Positions 8,855 to 33,462 of a stretch of DNA of 33,462 bases are shown in pieces. The DNA is taken from IMG/VR virus record IMGVR_UViG_638341087_000016; one strand, given 5' to 3'. The position numbers were made by a program, and so were the translations under genes. The DNA comes from a virus (taxonomy: Duplodnaviria; Heunggongvirae; Uroviricota; Caudoviricetes). The notes under the pieces are model-generated. The model searched no databases. It was not told the origin of the DNA and worked only from the letters and a program-made list of their open reading frames with translations. Numbering within the stretch: position 1 is the stretch's first letter; each line of letters opens with the position of its first letter.

Positions 8855-9182
8855 AGTTAACCTCTGTACTGACAGGGCCGAAATCGTAGGTTTCCGCCGT
8901 GATATACAACCTCGAAAGGGTTTCTTCGGTGATCACTATGGTTCCTGGGACCAGACGTTCGTCGCTTTCCACCAGTAAGGACAGTTGCGTCAGCACGTCA
9001 CCGCGCATTGTCGGGCTGCGTTCACCGATCAGGCGGGTGGTGATACCGCTTTCCAGAATGCTGTGAATAATGTCCTGGGTGATGCTGTCGCGGTTATCGC
9101 AACGGCGCGGCTCGTTGCCGCTGTCCAGCGTGAAATCGCCGTCAGTGATCAAAAGGTCGATGTATAACGGTTCGGTACTCAT
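8847..9182 (-). CDS. Small baseplate protein (gpW/gp25-like or Mu gp46-like)
   Basis: 111-aa ORF immediately upstream of the J-like gene with start/stop overlaps. Confidence 0.5.
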   Translation of the reverse strand: MSTEPLYIDLLITDGDFTLDSGNEPRRCDNRDSITQDIIHSILESGITTRLIGERSPTMRGDVLTQLSLLVESDERLVPGTIVITEETLSRLYITAETYDFGPVSTEVNYD

Positions 9183-10570
9183 CCTGCGTTAAGCTCCTGC
9201 CATTCAGCCAGCTGGGCCGGGGTGATTCCATTGGGGGCGTTGATGTAGGTATCGCCCCACGTTTTACGGTTATCAACAGCGGTTTTGCTGTCGTTTTTAA
9301 CCTGACTCATCAGGCCGCCGCGTGGGATGCCTGCATTAATTCGGTTCCCCGTCAGCACGGACGGGCTGTTTAGCTTCGATGAACCTGCAGCACTGTCAGG
9401 AATGACCGCATTTGCCGGAACGGCAGCCGCTGCCGGTGGCGAAACGGTTTTCAGGTCGATGTTTACGCCGGGGATCTTGTTTAACTTCTCGACAATCCAG
9501 TTATAGGTAGACGCAAAGGTATTTTTGAGGACGTCAAAAAGTTTGCTGAATACCCCGCCGATGGTTTGTGCGAACCCTTCAAAGGTGGCAAGCGGGGAAA
9601 GACCGGCAAAGAAATCAACCACCACGGCCCAGCCGTCTGTGATGGACTGCCAGACCTGCGCAAACACCTGGCCTACCTGTTCAGCGACCGACATCACCCA
9701 GGCAAAAGCCGACGTATCCATGATTGCTGCCGCCAGTTCTTCCCAGTGGGTGATGACATACCAGACCCCCACGGCCAGAAGTGCCAGCCCGGCAACGATC
9801 AGAGTGATCGGACTCATCAGGAGTTGCATTGCCGCCCCGGCAAACATGGTCGCCGCACCGTAAACCCGCATGGCAATGGCTCCGGCCTTTAACGCGATAT
9901 TCCATGCAGCAAGCGCGATGCGGCAGACGCCCGTCCACAGCGCCAGTAATTTTGACTGGATCCACAATGCAGCCAGACCGATGCGCGTCGTCAGCAGGAA
10001 CGGACGCAACAGGTTGAGCGTCCATAACAGGAGTTTCCATGCCCCGCCCAGCACTTTTGCAATTGCGGCCAGCCCTGTCATGGTGAAGCCAAAGACCCCC
10101 ATCACGATATTGACCGCCGCCCCAGCCAACCCGAAGGACAGCACGCCCAGGGTGATGTAACCCAGCCAGCGGGCAATATTCGGGAACATATCCAGCCAGC
10201 GGGCAAATTTTGTCCCTACGTCGGCAATACGGTTCATCAGCGGCGACAGGATAGGGAACAGCGTGTTACCAATCGCCACGCGAATGGCAAAGAATGTCGC
10301 TTTGATACGTTCCCACGGCTCAGCCATTCGTTCGGCCATTTCCTGGGCGCGTTTCATCCCGTCATTTCGGCCCAGCTCGGTGATGCTGCGGTTTAATTTA
10401 TCCTGCTGGCCGTACAGCTTTTTGATAACGTCAGCACCACCACCGAACGCGGCATCCAGCGCCTGTTGTGCCTTGACGTTCCCTTCAATGCTCTGCCCGT
10501 ATTTGTTCTGGAGTTTTTGCAGAATGTCGCCCATCGGCAGCATTTTTCCGGTGGCATCGACAAAGCTCAT
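9179..10570 (-). CDS. Tail tape measure protein, C-terminal portion (downstream of the in-frame TAG)
   Basis: 463 aa with hydrophobic Gly/Ala-rich segments typical of tape measure proteins; the frame stays open upstream from 10570 to 10732. Confidence 0.7.
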   Translation of the reverse strand: MSFVDATGKMLPMGDILQKLQNKYGQSIEGNVKAQQALDAAFGGGADVIKKLYGQQDKLNRSITELGRNDGMKRAQEMAERMAEPWERIKATFFAIRVAIGNTLFPILSPLMNRIADVGTKFARWLDMFPNIARWLGYITLGVLSFGLAGAAVNIVMGVFGFTMTGLAAIAKVLGGAWKLLLWTLNLLRPFLLTTRIGLAALWIQSKLLALWTGVCRIALAAWNIALKAGAIAMRVYGAATMFAGAAMQLLMSPITLIVAGLALLAVGVWYVITHWEELAAAIMDTSAFAWVMSVAEQVGQVFAQVWQSITDGWAVVVDFFAGLSPLATFEGFAQTIGGVFSKLFDVLKNTFASTYNWIVEKLNKIPGVNIDLKTVSPPAAAAVPANAVIPDSAAGSSKLNSPSVLTGNRINAGIPRGGLMSQVKNDSKTAVDNRKTWGDTYINAPNGITPAQLAEWQELNAG

Positions 10571-10732
10571 ACCCAGCTTTTCAGCGGCAGCCGGGGCGCT
10601 GCGTAAAAACTGCTCGTAGATCCCGCTGGCCTCAGTACCCAGCGTGCGCGAAAGCGTACCCAGTACGGCGAACTGTTCATCCAGGCTGACGCCAAAGTCA
10701 GCACCGGCGCTTTTCGTCCCCTCGATAAGCTC

Positions 10733-11293
10733 CTACATGGTCTGCATTTTCACGCCGAAGTTTTGCACCATGTACGCCGTTTTTCCTGCCAGCTCTTCGG
10801 CAAAACGCACATGCCCCAGACTGGACAATTCCGCGTTGAAACGTGACGCCATCGCGCCGATGTATTCGCCTGCCTCTTCGCCGCTGGCCTTGACGCCTGC
10901 GGCCAGGGTATTGGCCGCGATGGTAACGCGGGGCAGGTCCAGATCGGACAGGCCCGCCATTGCGCCTTTCATCGCGTAGCTTGACCGGACCACATCAACG
11001 GCCCCTTTGCCGTAGCGCATACTGAATCGCATGGCTTCGCCGGACATACGCTTCAGCGCGTCCTCTGCTACGCCTTTGGAACCCACTTCTGCAAGCGCGG
11101 CGTTCATCTCATACGCCGGACCCACCACGCCCGCGATGGACTGCGCCACGCCCCAGACAGCCGCCGCACCAATCCCGATTTTTGTAAAAGACTCCTGCGA
11201 TTTTTCAGCAAAGCCAGACAGCGAAGACTGGGCCGTCTTTAATGGCCGCGTCAGCTTATCGATCAGGCTCAGGGTAAAATCCAGGTGGCTCAT
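10733..11293 (-). CDS. Tail tape measure protein, N-terminal portion ending at an in-frame TAG
   Basis: 186 aa in the same frame as 9179-10570; TAG at 10733-10735 verified from the sequence; ATG at 11291-11293. Confidence 0.7.
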   Translation of the reverse strand: MSHLDFTLSLIDKLTRPLKTAQSSLSGFAEKSQESFTKIGIGAAAVWGVAQSIAGVVGPAYEMNAALAEVGSKGVAEDALKRMSGEAMRFSMRYGKGAVDVVRSSYAMKGAMAGLSDLDLPRVTIAANTLAAGVKASGEEAGEYIGAMASRFNAELSSLGHVRFAEELAGKTAYMVQNFGVKMQTM

Positions 11294-19040: not shown

Positions 19041-19216
19041 AACTGACCTTTAATAATGAATTTAATAACAATGATTCGTTTGTGGTGGTCAGTATTGCGA
19101 ATTGATTAAAACAGCGCGACCGCTTTATTTCTTATGTATTCGGTTATAAATACATAGCCACTTTTTACCGATATTTAATTATCAATTCTGCAAAATAATC
19201 CCGCCATAATAGCCGC
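19041..19216. promoter_or_regulatory. Divergent late promoter region between O and P with a dyad element
   Basis: 176-bp AT-rich gap between divergent head operons; dyad TTATGTAT...ATACATA at about 19133-19158 (TGT-N14-ACA). Confidence 0.4.
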
Positions 19217-21028
19217 ATGGCTAAATATTCCGATGAATTAAAAGAAGCGGCCCGCACGCTTTATATGAAAAGCTGGACGCCGAAAGATATTGCGCAGGAA
19301 CTGAATATTCCACCGCGTACAATTTACCACTGGGCTGATGTCGGGAAGTGGGCATCACTGCTGCCTGTTGAATCGGTGGAAAATGTCATCGCCCGCCGTA
19401 TCGACCAGCTCTCCCGCCGCGAGAAAAAAACAGCGCTGGAACTGGAAGAACTGCGCGATCTGATTGCTCACCATGTGAAACTCATGGCGCAGCGCAACAA
19501 ACACGCCGAAAAGCTGGCAGAAATTCAGGCCCAGAAAGCGGCTTATGATGGTGAAGGGTACTGCCTCAGCAGCGCAGGCGGGGAACCAGAGGAAAGAAAG
19601 CGCCGGTATAAGAAAAACGACGTTTCCGGTATTACACCGGAAATGCTCGACACCTGGGCGCGGGAACATCTCTTCGAGTACCAGCTGCACTGCCGCGAAC
19701 ATAAAGGCGAAGACTGGCGCTTCATTCTGAAAAGCCGACAGGTCGGCATGACCTATTATTTCGCCTGGGAGGCATTCGAAGATGCTGTCATTACCGGTGA
19801 TAACCAGGTCTTTTTCTCTGCAAGCCGCTCCCAGTCTGAAATCTTCCGTGAATACATCGTCCAGATCGCCCAGAACCATTTCGGCGTGACGCTGACGGGT
19901 AAAAATATCCGCCTCAGCAACGGCGCAATACTGCGCTTTTTGTCCACGAACGCCAGCACCGCGCAGGGCTTTAACGGCCACCTGTATGGCGATGAGGTTT
20001 TCTGGATCCCGAAATTCACGCGCCTGCACGAAGTTGCCAGCGCAATGGCAACGCATAACAAATACCGGACGACCTACTTTTCGACGCCCAGCGCGAAAAC
20101 GCACCAGGCTTACCCGGTATGGACTGGCGAAGCCTGGCGCGGGGACGACCCGAAACGCAAAGGTGTGGCGTTCCCGACAGAAAGCGAAATGCGCCAGGGT
20201 ATTCTCTGCCCGGACCAGATCTGGCGCTACATCATAACGATGGAAGACGCTATCGAAGGTGGCCTCGGTGCGCTTGTCGATATTGAACGGCTGCGCAACA
20301 AATACAGCCCGACCGCGTTCGCCATGCTCTACATGTGCCAGTTTGTTGACAGTAAGGACGCGGTGTTCAAGTTCTCCGCGCTTGTCGGCTGCGAAGTGGA
20401 CCGGGCCACATGGGGCGACTTTGATCTGACCGCTGCGCGGCCCTTCGGCAATCGCGAAGTATGGGCAGGCTTTGACCCGTCACGATCCGGCGACAACTCC
20501 ACCTTTGTGTTAATCGCGCCCCCCATAGAGGACGGCGAGCGCTTCCGCGTGCTGGCCGTCTGGCAATGGCAGGGCTTTAACTTCAGCTGGCAGGCCGACC
20601 AGATAAAGCAGCTTATGCGCCGCTTTAACATCACTTACATCGGGATCGATACAACCGGCATTGGTAAGGGCGTTTATGACCTGGTCAGCAAGTTTGCACC
20701 GCGCGAAGCCACACCCATTCTTTACAGCGTCGAAAGCAAAAACCGTCTGGTAATGAAGATGATCGACGTTGTCGAGCGTAAGCGCATCGAATGGGCAAAA
20801 GACGCCGTAGACGAAACGAACAAAGAGCGCGTCGAAATTCCGGCCAGCTTTATGGCTATCCGGCGCACGACAACCAACAGCGGCAACGCGCTGACGTTTG
20901 TTGCCGAACGTTCAGACGCGACCGGCCATGCAGATGTTTTCTTCGCTATCTCGCACGCCGTAATTAACGAACCTATCGATCACGAATATGACCGCCCATC
21001 GGGCTGGTACTTTGGGAAAGCAGCATGA
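19217..21028 (+). CDS. P: Terminase large (ATPase) subunit P
   Basis: 603 aa, P2 gpP-like; stop overlaps the Q start in ATGA. Confidence 0.85.
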   Translation: MAKYSDELKEAARTLYMKSWTPKDIAQELNIPPRTIYHWADVGKWASLLPVESVENVIARRIDQLSRREKKTALELEELRDLIAHHVKLMAQRNKHAEKLAEIQAQKAAYDGEGYCLSSAGGEPEERKRRYKKNDVSGITPEMLDTWAREHLFEYQLHCREHKGEDWRFILKSRQVGMTYYFAWEAFEDAVITGDNQVFFSASRSQSEIFREYIVQIAQNHFGVTLTGKNIRLSNGAILRFLSTNASTAQGFNGHLYGDEVFWIPKFTRLHEVASAMATHNKYRTTYFSTPSAKTHQAYPVWTGEAWRGDDPKRKGVAFPTESEMRQGILCPDQIWRYIITMEDAIEGGLGALVDIERLRNKYSPTAFAMLYMCQFVDSKDAVFKFSALVGCEVDRATWGDFDLTAARPFGNREVWAGFDPSRSGDNSTFVLIAPPIEDGERFRVLAVWQWQGFNFSWQADQIKQLMRRFNITYIGIDTTGIGKGVYDLVSKFAPREATPILYSVESKNRLVMKMIDVVERKRIEWAKDAVDETNKERVEIPASFMAIRRTTTNSGNALTFVAERSDATGHADVFFAISHAVINEPIDHEYDRPSGWYFGKAA

Positions 21029-22086
21029 CAAAGAAACAGCGTAATAATAAAAAATTCAGGTCCATGACCGGCAGCAAGGTTGAATCCTTCACGCCAGGGC
21101 GCGGAAGCGTGATCACATTTGGCGAACCCGAACCCATCCTGACGACCGGCACTGATTATCACAATATCTGGTATGACAATGAGTATGACCACTGGCGACT
21201 CCCGATTGATCGCCTGGCGCTGGCCCAGTTGCCGAACCTTAACGGCCAGCACGGTGGGGTACTGTATGCGCGGCGCAATATGGTTGCCGGTGGCTACATC
21301 GGCGGCGGCCTGACGCCTGACCAGGTCGAACAGGCTGTCTTTGATTACCTGCTGTTTGGTGACGTCGCTATCCTGAAAATTCGTAACGTATTCGGGGAAG
21401 TGATCGACCTGCTGCCGCTGCCGTCGCTGTATCTGCGCTGCCGAAAAGACGGGGCGTTTGCTGTTTTGCAGGAAGGGCCAGCACTTATCTATGAACCGGA
21501 AGACATCGTCTTTTTTAAAATGTACGACCCGCGCCAGCAGGTGTACGGCCTGCCTGACTATATCGGCGGCATCCATTCGGTGTTACTCAACAGTGAGGCA
21601 ACCATCTTCCGACGCCGTTACTACAATAATGGGGCACATATGGGCTTTATTCTCTATACCAGCGATCCGAATCTTACGCTGGAAATGGAAAATGAAATCA
21701 AAGAGAAGATCGCCCAGTCCAAAGGGCTGGGTAACTTCCGAAATATGTTTATCAACATCCCGAAGGGCGACCCGGAAGGGGTTAAAATCATGCCAGTGGG
21801 TGAAGTCAGCGCAAAGGATGAATTTGCCAACATCAAAGGGATAACCGCGCAGGATATCTTTACCGCCCACCGTTTCCCCGCTGGCCTGGCGGGTATCATC
21901 CCGACCAACGGCGCGGTAATGGGCAACCCTGAAACCGCCCGCACAACCTATCGCAAGGATGAAGTTATCCCCTTGCAGCGCAAGCTAATGAACGGCGTCA
22001 ATAATGACCCGGAGATCCCCGCACACTTGCACCTGGTTTTTGACGTGGATATCCCGGCAATTGCCACCGAAAAGGGCGAAAAATGA
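21025..22086 (+). CDS. Q: Portal protein Q
   Basis: 353 aa, P2 gpQ-like, downstream of P with an ATGA overlap. Confidence 0.85.
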   Translation: MTKKQRNNKKFRSMTGSKVESFTPGRGSVITFGEPEPILTTGTDYHNIWYDNEYDHWRLPIDRLALAQLPNLNGQHGGVLYARRNMVAGGYIGGGLTPDQVEQAVFDYLLFGDVAILKIRNVFGEVIDLLPLPSLYLRCRKDGAFAVLQEGPALIYEPEDIVFFKMYDPRQQVYGLPDYIGGIHSVLLNSEATIFRRRYYNNGAHMGFILYTSDPNLTLEMENEIKEKIAQSKGLGNFRNMFINIPKGDPEGVKIMPVGEVSAKDEFANIKGITAQDIFTAHRFPAGLAGIIPTNGAVMGNPETARTTYRKDEVIPLQRKLMNGVNNDPEIPAHLHLVFDVDIPAIATEKGEK

Positions 22087-22409
22087 GCGCAGTTAAGTTA
22101 AAATCCCCCCCATTATTAGCAATGGCGTGCGGGATGGTGAACATGCGAGTTTTTAAAATTAAATGTCCTGAATGCGGCTCACCGGCCATCATTCGCAAAT
22201 CTGACTGGAAAGATAAAAAACTGGCGTCTTTATACTGTGGCTGCACAGAAGTGGAATGTGGTCATACATTTGTTTATAGCGTTGAGTTTTCACATACCCT
22301 CAGCCCCAGCGGGCTGACCGGCAACAAGCTGGTTAAATTCCTGATTGACCGGCTCAAGCCGGAAGAACGTCAATTCGCGCTGGACCTGCTCAGTGGGCAA
22401 ACTACATAA
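22083..22409 (+). CDS. ogr: Ogr/Delta-family zinc-finger late transcription activator (candidate)
   Basis: KCPECG...YCGCTEVECGHTF Cys motif resembling P2 Ogr; start overlaps the Q stop in ATGA; the short form would start at ATG 22143. Confidence 0.6.
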   Translation: MSAVKLKSPPLLAMACGMVNMRVFKIKCPECGSPAIIRKSDWKDKKLASLYCGCTEVECGHTFVYSVEFSHTLSPSGLTGNKLVKFLIDRLKPEERQFALDLLSGQTT

Positions 22410-22480
22410 ATCCCACTGCTACACATAGATGTACGGCGCAAGCATCAATCCTTTGAACACCTAATGTACATTACATCCCT

Positions 22481-22509
22481 CCGCCGCACATTCAAATTGC
22501 GGCGGTTTT
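22481..22509 (+). terminator. Rho-independent terminator after the P-Q-ogr operon
   Basis: 8-bp GC stem ccgccgca/tgcggcgg with a 9-nt loop followed by TTTT. Confidence 0.6.
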
Positions 22510-22671: not shown

Positions 22672-25464
22672 TTAATCTGAAAGTTCACCAATATCATCCA
22701 TTGGTTTTTTATCATTAAAAGATAGACGAAGTTTTTGTTCATGTAATGCAGTGATTTTTTTACAACTATCTACAGAAATATAATAAAACGACAAGCCATC
22801 GTTATTAATAAATTCCAAATTAATCCTAATAGACATCAGCGCGTACATCAATGGATTTTCATCCTTGAAATTATACAACCCCTTAACTAAGGAAATATTC
22901 TCATCAGAAATACTTTCAATTTTCAAATCAAATAAATTAGTATTCCGCAGACAGGAAAATACGCTCAAAAAATCCATGTAGTAAAGACCAGGAGACCCCA
23001 AACCCAAAACTCCTTTTGAATCTGTTATTCTCATACCTTTTGAGTAACGGTAAACACTTGCCTCTCCTTTAACCATGTAATGAATTGTTATAAGCTTATC
23101 GGAAGGTAGTTCACTTACATCTTCGATCTCATTTACATCTTTATATTGGCCTTTAATTCCATCAAGCATTTTATGAAGCCAAGCATAGACAAACACTTCA
23201 GCATGATGTGAACTATTCATTGAATAATGCACTTTATCAATTGACTGCAAGACTTCTCTCTTATTAATCAATGAATAGAATGGATTGCAGACAACTGAAT
23301 TTGACACAGGAATAGAATCAATATCTACGAATTTATTAAAATACCCACCTAATGATATTGATACTTTATCTATGTATTTATTAACCAGAACCTTATCAAG
23401 GTCAGAAGAAACAATAGAATTTGCGATTAATTCATTTTTTACAGAAATTATACTTTCAAGATGCTCTGCAACCTCCATCCGATTTGTTTCTTGAGAAGAT
23501 CCTTCATTAATCAACTCTAATAAAGCTGAAAATTCATCACCTTTCAAATATGATATAAGTGATTGCAGTTCATGAGTTGTTATTTTTGTATTTTTAATAA
23601 ACTCTTTTTTATTACGTATAAAAATAGGATTGAGGTTGTTTTTATTAAATAATGTTTGAGTCATTAAAAGGGATACTGCTTTGAAAGCATCGTTATTTAT
23701 TGAAAAGGTTGCAACCTCATAATCAGGTATATCTCTTAAAGTTCTACTTGCATCAAAATCAGGTTCAGATGGGACTGTAAATATAACATCATACACGCCA
23801 CTCTTATAAAAAAGATCTTCTAGGAATGAAGGTGCTAACCATTTCATTAAATTCTGTTTTATTATTCTCAATTCCTCCTGATGCCCATCACTTTTTTCAG
23901 ATAAATAGCACAGCCTAATAATCAGTAAAGTTATAACCTGTCTTACACACGATACCATCTTGTTCTCAATGATACTAAGGGTTTCGCCATCATCAGATGA
24001 CTCTGGATAACGAAATTTCTCAGTCAAGAATCGAGTATTCAGGCTAAATGCCAAATAATTCTTTGACAAGATGTTGTCTCTCACCGTTGACATATATAAA
24101 TCAAAAAAACGATATTCTGGATCACCTAAACTATATTGAGCACGATGTTCCAATGACGGTGATATCAATTTATAAAATTCATCATATTGCTCATTATCAT
24201 AAATATACCTTCCCAAATCCATAATCGATCGAAGAGCATCACACACTATATTATAGTTTTTATACCCACTCACTTCAGAACTAACCTTCATATAAAAAGC
24301 AGCAAAAATTGAATACTCTATATTATTTTTTTTGTTAGTATAACCAAAAGAGTGATTGAGGTTATGTATTACTTTAACTAATTCAGTTTCACTAACTAAT
24401 GTGAAGATAGCTCTTATGCTAAAATCTAACGCTAACTCATTACCACTAAAAAGACTATTTCTTAAGCTAATAACTACTGCATCTTCATACTTACCGTAAT
24501 TCAAGAAGCTTTCAGGAGCTGAACTGAACACCAATCCTTTTTTCAATAGTTTTGTAACATTACTAATTAATAGCTCATCGATCGACGCTCCATCTTGCAC
24601 TTCAATATGAACCGATGAGGTTGATAGTGGATATATAAAGTTAAGATTCACGCGTAAATCAGTACGTACCACTTTCGAAAAACGCTCTAGCTCATTGTTA
24701 ATTTCTTTAAAGCAAATTGGACAAAAATCATTAATAATGACATTTTGATTATTTTGGAAAATATTTAACTTACGTTGTTCTTTATTGATAAAATCGGAAT
24801 CCCACCCATAATGAATATATTCAAAATCATTAATCATGTTTAAAAATTTATTTTCTATAGTTCTTCTACGTTCGTCAATCAATAAATAATCATTTTTAGC
24901 CTTATCAAGCTCAAAAAATAAACGATCAGTTATTATAGTTGGATTCTCAGTAACATTATATAATTTCAGATACATTGAACCATAATTAAAAATAAAGTAT
25001 AACGATACAAAAATGGATATAGCATAAGTAATCATGCCGCCACCACATGAAAGCAATACGATACCACTTAAAAGACTAAAAATAGAATTTAAACTAAACT
25101 TTAAAAAACTAGTTTTCCGCAACAACATCGACTTACAAATATTTTCAAAGCCATGTTCAGAATAATTAGAAACCTGACTAACAAACATTCCCATAAATGT
25201 AATTGATAGTGCAGCAATAGTTCCATGTATGCCTAAAACTCCCGCCCAAACACTAGTAGTCCAATTCAATGGGGAATTATTGAGAAAAGATGGTGTTACA
25301 AGTAAATACTTTACCCCTTCATCAACATATCTAGAGTAGATTACACCGGAAATACCCAACCCGACCAGAATAAAGTAGATCAAGAAGATAATTATAACTT
25401 CCCTATTTATACTTAAAAAACCATTATTAAAAATAATTTTTCTTTCCAAAATCAGACCCCACAT
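22672..25464 (-). CDS. Large membrane-anchored protein of unknown function; candidate single-gene anti-phage cargo
   Basis: 930-aa ORF with ATG start; about four N-terminal hydrophobic helices in residues 20-160 and a roughly 770-aa soluble region; very AT-rich coding sequence; no Walker A or other motif recognised by eye. Confidence 0.8.
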   Translation of the reverse strand: MWGLILERKIIFNNGFLSINREVIIIFLIYFILVGLGISGVIYSRYVDEGVKYLLVTPSFLNNSPLNWTTSVWAGVLGIHGTIAALSITFMGMFVSQVSNYSEHGFENICKSMLLRKTSFLKFSLNSIFSLLSGIVLLSCGGGMITYAISIFVSLYFIFNYGSMYLKLYNVTENPTIITDRLFFELDKAKNDYLLIDERRRTIENKFLNMINDFEYIHYGWDSDFINKEQRKLNIFQNNQNVIINDFCPICFKEINNELERFSKVVRTDLRVNLNFIYPLSTSSVHIEVQDGASIDELLISNVTKLLKKGLVFSSAPESFLNYGKYEDAVVISLRNSLFSGNELALDFSIRAIFTLVSETELVKVIHNLNHSFGYTNKKNNIEYSIFAAFYMKVSSEVSGYKNYNIVCDALRSIMDLGRYIYDNEQYDEFYKLISPSLEHRAQYSLGDPEYRFFDLYMSTVRDNILSKNYLAFSLNTRFLTEKFRYPESSDDGETLSIIENKMVSCVRQVITLLIIRLCYLSEKSDGHQEELRIIKQNLMKWLAPSFLEDLFYKSGVYDVIFTVPSEPDFDASRTLRDIPDYEVATFSINNDAFKAVSLLMTQTLFNKNNLNPIFIRNKKEFIKNTKITTHELQSLISYLKGDEFSALLELINEGSSQETNRMEVAEHLESIISVKNELIANSIVSSDLDKVLVNKYIDKVSISLGGYFNKFVDIDSIPVSNSVVCNPFYSLINKREVLQSIDKVHYSMNSSHHAEVFVYAWLHKMLDGIKGQYKDVNEIEDVSELPSDKLITIHYMVKGEASVYRYSKGMRITDSKGVLGLGSPGLYYMDFLSVFSCLRNTNLFDLKIESISDENISLVKGLYNFKDENPLMYALMSIRINLEFINNDGLSFYYISVDSCKKITALHEQKLRLSFNDKKPMDDIGELSD

Positions 25465-33144: not shown

Positions 33145-33462
33145 TCACTCTCCACATTTGAATGTCAGACGAGCGACGCCATGTAATCCTGCACCTTCTG
33201 TCTTCAGGTCAACTATCTGCATTTTTTTGCCCTGAGTAACACAGAAATGGGCTGCATCATTTTTTACTATATTTTCTGCACCAGATATTCTGCCCCTGGC
33301 TAAAGAAGCTTCGGCTTCGGTGTAGTATTGGTTATCGAGTTTACGCTGAATATTACTTTTATATGCAAGACCAAATTTACCGATACTTGTCTCATCATTA
33401 TGCACAGCACAACCAGACATAATAAAAATACTAATTAATGATATAGCAGCTATCTTTTTCAT
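33145..33462 (-). CDS. yegR: Host lipoprotein of unknown function (probably yegR)
   Basis: 105 aa with a signal peptide and MSGC lipobox; outside the att core; size and locus context fit E. coli yegR next to the P2 locI site. Confidence 0.5.
   Translation of the reverse strand: MKKIAAISLISIFIMSGCAVHNDETSIGKFGLAYKSNIQRKLDNQYYTEAEASLARGRISGAENIVKNDAAHFCVTQGKKMQIVDLKTEGAGLHGVARLTFKCGE

Follow-up and report, generated by a model that had tools for sequence, protein, structure and literature searches.

An Ogr/Delta-Like Gene Overlapping the Portal Gene of an HP1/K139-Type Prophage, with Nested Start Codons and a Candidate Promoter Hexamer

RESULTS AND DISCUSSION

An Ogr/Delta-type gene directly follows the portal gene

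IMG/VR virus record IMGVR_UViG_638341087_000016, a stretch of 33,462 nucleotides (nt) referred to below as the window, is an Escherichia coli prophage that belongs to the P2-like phages (Peduoviridae), specifically to their HP1/K139 branch and not to the P2 type proper. On its + strand lie the large terminase gene of the P2 gpP type (P; positions 19217 to 21028; Pfam Terminase_6N, E = 9e-44; Terminase_6C, E = 7e-34; Terminase_5 [gpP-like], E = 2e-13) and the portal gene of the P2 gpQ type (Q; 21025 to 22086; 353 amino acids [aa]; PF04860 Phage_portal, E = 2e-13). The latter, which is likewise annotated as a portal gene in the SW3, SI7, and E. coli records, ends in a TGA stop codon at 22084 to 22086. 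The open reading frame (ORF) that is the subject of this analysis (22083 to 22409, + strand, 108 aa) begins with an ATG (22083 to 22085) that overlaps this TGA as ATGA. Its first 20 codons (22083 to 22142) form an N-terminal extension that contains a TAAAAT hexamer (22099 to 22104), and a second in-frame ATG at 22143 opens the 88-aa core. We hold it probable, with moderate confidence, that the ORF encodes a small C4 zinc-ribbon activator of late gene transcription belonging to the Ogr/Delta family and that this protein is expressed along two routes.

The predicted protein contains the Cys motif C28-X2-C31-X22-C54-X4-C59 in long-form numbering (22164 to 22259), which reads C28-PE-C31 and C54-TEVE-C59. 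All four cysteines are invariant in an alignment of nine sequences, and CX2CX22CX4C is the motif of the Ogr/Delta family (PMC3931495). A profile hidden Markov model search matched residues 27 to 73 to the entire PF04606 Ogr_Delta model (positions 1 to 47 of 47; E = 3.5e-16; 59.3 bits against a cutoff of 26.3), and the 88-aa form alone gave an E value of 2.4e-16. In addition, the protein matches PHROG 603, "transcriptional regulator" (E = 6e-37). A PDB sequence search returned no homologue of solved structure, the best hit being a TFIIB-type zinc ribbon with an E value of 0.045. The product is a small single-domain protein (88 aa, or 108 aa with the extension) in a Peduoviridae genome. The core coding sequence, 88 aa from Met21 plus the stop codon (22143 to 22409, + strand), is supported by the Pfam match and by a Met-Arg-Val (MRV) methionine present in all relatives. 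It likely represents a functional Ogr-type activator which, by analogy with P2 Ogr, would activate the σ70 RNA polymerase at late promoters.

A sequence-only reading of the window, made before this analysis, had recognized the Cys motif, the Ogr/Delta-like character, and the ATGA overlap, and all three were borne out. It had also raised the question of a second ogr copy. Neither a motif scan nor a profile search of the six-frame translations found one in the window. The gene itself is already known: identical E. coli prophages carry it under the PGAP name "ogr/Delta-like zinc finger family protein" (WP_000247826.1).

The position of the gene is a trait of its lineage. The order P, Q, ogr-like gene occurs in nine phage records (SW3, K139, ESSI-2, phiO18P, YenM_324, ev015, ev239, Pmp6, and HP1) and in most of 68 loci recovered from bacterial genomes. 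In the HP1/K139-type order, the replication module comes next, on the opposite strand. An ogr homologue after the portal gene has been published for K139 and Smhb1 (PMC8537503), and the post-portal site is normal for the HP1/K139 lineage, including the SI7/SW3-type Peduoviridae. The proposal that the gene had been relocated next to Q is therefore correct relative to P2 and does not apply within the HP1/K139 lineage, where this site is standard. A P2 gpD domain was matched by none of the leftmost tail proteins of the window, and the slot "after D" was not found.

The portal-overlapping start codon is kept in a range of contexts

The start region was compared across 58 distinct Enterobacterales portal/ogr junctions, which form 15 clusters at <80% nucleotide identity. 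The genome scan for these loci used a 6-sequence alignment; the 9-sequence alignment had no block that was conserved enough. An ATG stands exactly 16 nt upstream of the hexamer in 49/58 junctions, and most of the others have GTG, TTG, or an ATG one codon later. This upstream ATG is kept together with the portal stop as ATGA or TAATG, free-standing past the stop (loci L019 and L060), or inside a longer portal ORF (L030-L034, L031, and L063). The final portal codon is variable (AAA, TTA, GCA, ATA, GAA, CAA, or GTA) yet always ends in A. Between the upstream ATG and the core, the frame is uninterrupted in 55/58 junctions, giving extensions of 17 to 20 codons. In an earlier set of 55 junctions, on which the stop counts are based, stops occurred in the ogr frame in 2 cases, against 29 in another frame.

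The fixed position of the ATG and the frame-specific avoidance of stops support a selected, translationally coupled second start overlapping the portal gene. Coupling of the gene to Q, as first proposed from the letters of the window, is hence favored by the comparative data. The 20-aa extension that such a start would add stands as well, the next conserved methionine being Met21 at 22143. A weak Shine-Dalgarno (SD)-like AAGGG (22072 to 22076, + strand) lies 6 nt before the coupled ATG, and across the 15 clusters a G-rich block (GGGTG or AGGGC) is conserved 5 to 9 nt before the upstream ATG. The anti-SD duplex at the coupled ATG amounts to -4.4 kcal/mol in the window, with a family mean of -4.7 and a background of -2.0 (standard deviation, 2.5).

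The loci with a longer portal ORF (L030-L034, L031, and L063), several Photorhabdus, Xenorhabdus, and Brenneria prophages, have lost the TGA. There, the TAA of the hexamer forms the portal stop, and the long ogr start overlaps the portal gene by 19 nt. In the window, the corresponding TAA (22099 to 22101) lies in the portal frame, four codons past the portal TGA.

One alternative is that only the short 88-aa protein is made, that both the upstream ATG and the open frame have arisen as by-products, and that a long isoform has no function. In variants of this explanation, the by-products may stem from restarting ribosomes being carried past the internal ribosome-binding site (RBS) or from shared ancestry. 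The extension has a high ratio of nonsynonymous to synonymous substitution rates (dN/dS of 0.40, versus 0.06 for the core), and Pfam coverage begins only at residue 27. The start codon position, however, is fixed in 15 clusters of <80% identity and in several stop-codon contexts, including the two loci that retain a free-standing ATG without overlapping the portal stop. Likewise, the avoidance of stops is specific to the ogr frame, and any upstream ATG that is used must give an in-frame long protein. We regard the short protein as sole product as possible though unlikely.

An internal start with its own ribosome-binding site

The internal methionine, Met21 (22143), sits in an N-M-R-V motif that is conserved in relatives together with a GGAG-type SD. 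In the window, the SD-like sequence GGGATGGTG (22131 to 22139, + strand) forms an anti-SD duplex of -7.8 kcal/mol, compared to a family mean of -5.8 and a background of -2.0, and other clades have GGAG at the same position upstream of the internal Met. The Met of the MRV motif is the N terminus of the extension-less proteins of K139, phiO18P, and Pmp6. This start, supported by homology and equipped with its own RBS, was missed by the sequence-only reading, as was the conserved -10-like hexamer inside the extension. In the Siccibacter prophages L040 and L042, the internal ATG of the MRV motif has changed to GTG, and the portal-overlapping ATG is kept (as TAATG). A conserved RNA structure that would mask the internal RBS was rejected, since RNAalifold on 15 diverse junctions yielded 0 pairs.

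Public annotations disagree on the length of the protein. It is given as 108 aa in GenBank for SW3, 107 aa in RefSeq for ESSI-2, and 106 aa for YenM_324, versus 91 aa in RefSeq for SI7 and in PGAP for E. coli and 89 aa for ev015 and ev239. For this disagreement over the start codon (108, 91, or 88 to 89 aa), the comparison favors Met21 as the start of the conserved core. The choice of short starts for SI7, ev015, ev239, and E. coli by RefSeq/PGAP, the K139 and phiO18P proteins that begin at the MRV Met, and an internal SD that beats the upstream one in the window (-7.8 versus -4.4 kcal/mol) fit the short-only explanation set out above.

The opposite alternative is the one put forward by the sequence-only reading, namely, that only the coupled 108-aa protein is made, as the product of the third gene of a late P-Q operon. 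Conservation of the hexamer and of the internal Met would then reflect the protein sequence, that is, hydrophobic-Lys-Ser/Phe/Tyr and Met-Arg-Val. The ATGA overlap and the conservation of the coupled start agree with this, and the long form is the one annotated for SW3 in GenBank, for ESSI-2 in RefSeq, and for YenM_324. Against it, the internal Met has a conserved SD and is the sole start in K139, phiO18P, and Pmp6. Moreover, a positive feedback loop cannot start without an independent source of activator. Together with the codon usage of the hexamer (see below), this makes the long protein as the only product very improbable.

The TAAAAT hexamer is conserved as a nucleotide sequence

The hexamer at 22099 to 22104 (+ strand), located 44 nt before the ATG at 22143, could be the -10 element of a promoter that serves the ogr-like gene itself. 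It reaches 2.0 bits at five of its six positions across the 15 clusters, with only 0.1 to 0.9 bits in its flanks. The sequence is TAAAAT in 14/15 clusters and TAGAAT in the remaining one, and a G at -14 is equally frequent (14/15). With five of six positions shared with TATAAT, the hexamer lies at a suitable distance from the start codon for a -10 element.

The codons across the hexamer are always NTA-AAA-Tnn, and the encoded amino acids vary (L/V/I, K, and S/F/Y/L). In the core of the same genes, NTA makes up 22% and AAA 71% of their codon classes, and the background use of such codons is approximately 15% per lineage. The hexamer also persists where the extension is closed or absent. In Providencia (L022/L023) and Serratia (L057), it is kept 33 to 42 nt before the start, out of frame or with no extension present, and a TATAAT is similarly spaced from the start in Pasteurella phage Pmp6. 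The hexamer is thus conserved as nucleotides regardless of the reading frame, which implies a constraint on the DNA and not on the protein. All of this speaks against protein-level conservation as assumed by the long-only alternative. The simplest reading of this conservation pattern is that TAAAAT is a candidate -10 promoter element.

The hexamer could also be another DNA or RNA signal, such as a backup portal stop, a regulator-binding site, or an RNA processing site, with the gene being expressed from upstream promoters only. In favor of this, its TAA is in phase with the portal ORF, which indeed terminates there in L030-L034, L031, and L063, and no acceptable -35 element was found upstream. 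However, a backup stop accounts for the TAA and leaves the invariant AAT and the conserved G at -14 unexplained. No conserved RNA pairing involves the region (RNAalifold, 0 pairs), and the distance of 33 to 44 nt to the start codon fits a -10 element followed by a short leader. In addition, the hexamer is kept in L057, which lacks an upstream portal gene. We therefore consider a signal of another kind improbable.

Directly behind the hexamer, at the would-be discriminator, the window has seven C residues (22105 to 22111), where SW3 has TCATCCCCA.

The P-Q transcript would extend through the ogr-like gene

An intrinsic-terminator-like hairpin followed by UUUU (22481 to 22509, + strand) ends the P-Q-ogr unit. 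It was recognized as an inverted repeat and by folding, in both the minimum free energy and the centroid structure. The stem consists of 8 bp, all Watson-Crick and GC rich (CCGCCGCA/TGCGGCGG; 22481 to 22488 and 22498 to 22505), with a folding energy of -14.8 kcal/mol, and the reverse strand is without a U-run. A simple terminator scan does not list this hairpin because of its 9-nt loop and only four U residues. The terminator that had been placed here from sequence alone thus holds in substance.

No terminator was found between Q and the ogr-like gene. As there is none before 22481, a P-Q transcript must carry the ogr-like gene. This much supports the earlier proposal that the activator is part of a late operon; the arrangement itself is not new and has a precedent in P2. 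There, late gene expression is controlled via autoregulation by Ogr (PMC8537503).

The divergent intergenic region between the scaffold gene O (- strand) and the terminase gene P (+ strand), located at 19041 to 19216 on the ORF map, presumably harbors the late promoters P_P and P_O, by analogy with P2. A scan found no consensus σ70 promoter in this region on either strand. P2 late promoters carry TGT-N12-ACA (PMC3931495). In the window, this pattern has nine matches compared to 6.6 expected. As a P2-type activator site it was rejected, since the matches occur at chance frequency and none is intergenic. The activator binding site may differ in this lineage.

The P/O region does contain a perfect 8-nt inverted repeat, TATGTATT-N8-AATACATA (19133 to 19156; TGT-N14-ACA), which is the only perfect copy in the window. 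In SW3, the right arm of this repeat reads ACTGGATA, with three clustered differences, and the rest of the intergenic region is identical. Its role as a shared late-promoter operator was not established, since the right arm differs in SW3. Likewise, no meaningful 10-mer turned out to be shared among the intergenic regions considered as late promoter candidates and the sequence upstream of ogr.

A two-route model of expression

Taken together, the conserved signals suggest two routes of expression for the ogr-like gene. Along the first, a weak promoter of its own, with the -10 element TAAAAT (22099 to 22104) in the 60 nt past the portal stop, would give rise to a short mRNA. From this mRNA, only the 88-aa protein could be made, starting at the ATG at 22143 with its own SD, and it would provide the first supply of activator. 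Along the second, the late P-Q transcript would read through the gene up to the hairpin at 22481 to 22509. Ribosomes ending Q at its UGA would restart at the overlapping AUG at 22083 and produce the 108-aa form with a loosely constrained N-terminal tail, and internal initiation at 22143 would still be possible on this mRNA. Positive feedback would result from the second route, as it does in P2 via readthrough from its late F operon. In 1991, Birkeland et al. reportedly found that P2 ogr has its own promoter and is read through from that operon.

Several points weigh against this two-route model. The TGT-N12-ACA dyad, which lies near -55 in promoters of the P2 type, is absent from the P/O and other late intergenic regions, and the P-Q operon is called "late" by analogy with P2. 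For the internal promoter, no -35 element matching in at least four of six positions was found 16 to 18 nt upstream of the hexamer, the best being GCGAAA (3/6) with a 17-nt spacer, and a consensus promoter scan calls no + strand promoter near 22100. Since some lineages terminate the portal gene at the TAA of the hexamer, part of its conservation is explained without a promoter, although the AAT is not. For the coupled start, the SD is weak in the window (-4.4 kcal/mol), and locus L045 has lost the upstream ATG. Finally, the extension has an evolutionary rate approximately seven times that of the core, and the long form may therefore lack a function of its own.

A more elaborate version would give the two nested isoforms, made from two promoters, distinct roles. 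The variable, mostly basic tail would alter activity or stability, and the feedback loop would switch the isoform during infection. The gene's own promoter, being situated inside the long-form coding sequence, would yield only the 88-aa core at an intermediate time, and the 108-aa form would arise by termination-reinitiation from the activator-dependent P-Q transcript. We consider both the isoform switch and this division of labor rather unlikely.

As it stands, the finding mostly reidentifies an annotated late-activator gene in a known position and matters little. The nested starts and the embedded -10-like hexamer, conserved together, may be the sole undescribed item. If they prove true, the two-route model would offer a compact example of a phage that primes, and then locks in, its late-gene feedback loop.

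The prophage and its cargo

The terminase-portal-ogr region is approximately 97% identical to that of the Salmonella phages SI7, SW3, and SW5 (Irrigatiovirus). The segment at 21700 to 22420 occurs with 100% identity in at least 12 complete E. coli genomes, where the prophage adjoins yegR/yegS. The tail module is HP1-like, with an HP1_ORF34 domain match and HP1-type baseplate genes, and the right end of the window encodes Cox, a helix-turn-helix repressor, and an integrase. Directly past the integrase gene, the last ORF (33145 to 33462) matches host yegR in an annotated E. coli record by position and size (105 aa).

The tape measure gene (9179 to 11293, - strand) carries an in-frame amber TAG at 10733 to 10735, where SI7 has CAG. 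In E. coli prophages of identical type, this gene is intact, with 2,115 nt. The prophage copy in the window is probably tail defective, unless the amber codon is a sequencing error or is suppressed.

Two further ORFs lie in regions of low GC content. At the far left, past the tail genes, an ORF of 321 aa with 37% GC (1 to 966, + strand) matches the abortive infection protein AbiH (Pfam, E = 2.4e-60; PADLOC, E = 2e-29) and is defense cargo at the prophage edge. The second ORF, of 930 aa (22672 to 25464, - strand), is part of a 30% GC island flanked by the ogr-like gene and the replication gene. It gave no Pfam or PADLOC match and hit only PHROGs 10073 and 18005 of unknown function. This ORF fills the slot of a DNA methylase gene in SW3, with similarity to SW3 stopping exactly at the ogr stop codon, and it may be an uncharacterized cargo or defense gene in a variable hot spot.

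Comparison with known systems

The closest counterpart of the ogr-like gene is WP_000247826.1 of the E. coli prophages located by yegR/yegS (e.g., NZ_CP027388.1). It has the same neighbors, namely, the terminase, the portal, a hypothetical protein of approximately 925 aa, and a replication endonuclease. It differs in the annotated start, as PGAP chose Met18 (91 aa) over both the coupled ATG and the conserved Met21. The "transcriptional regulator" of SI7, SW3, and SW5 is 91.7% identical at the aa level and shares the ATGA overlap, the hexamer, and the internal start. Downstream, SW3 has its DNA methylase gene in contrast to the terminator and the AT-rich 930-aa gene of the window.

More distant are the homologues of K139 (orf13, zinc finger), Smhb1, phiO18P, and HP1. 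These genes, too, have the portal gene on one side and the replication gene on the other and are oriented like P-Q, and the core identity of the K139 group to the window protein is approximately 47 to 49%. Unlike the window gene, they lack an N-terminal extension and do not overlap Q; orf14 and the predicted promoter P13 separate the ogr homologue from Q in K139, and a gap of 65 nt does so in phiO18P. K139, phiO18P, and HP1 are without TAAAAT and instead share CTGTAyAAAAA followed by a -35-like TTGAyr (L002, 3440 to 3470; L004, 3425 to 3455; L078, 2390 to 2420). In these lineages, the shared upstream sequence suggests a conserved control region of another type ahead of the ogr-like gene.

In HP1 (U24159.1; L078), the portal gene orf15 is directly followed by an unannotated Ogr-like gene (2424 to 2716) whose coding sequence is divided over two overlapping frames (MARTTDIYCTVCNS... 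and ...YYCACKNPLCGHRFV...), owing either to a frameshift in strain HP1c1 or to an old sequencing error.

P2 Ogr, 186 B, PSP3 Pag, and the Delta proteins of P4 and phiR73 belong to the same Pfam family, share CX2CX22CX4C, and are small activators of late operons. Their gene lies behind a late operon, as that of the window would. P2 Ogr comprises 72 aa and is not known to have a coupled start, and its gene follows the tail gene D near the attachment site (att), versus the position after the portal gene Q in the window. The late promoters of P2 have TGT-N12-ACA, and the P/O intergenic region of the window is without it. Finally, orf34 of phiCTX and the Ogr/Delta proteins of Burkholderia P2-like phages are members of the same family, with approximately 38 to 42% identity over the N-terminal two thirds. 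The phiCTX gene sits in the early/regulatory region upstream of the primase gene and not after the portal gene, which shows that the position of genes of this family varies between lineages.

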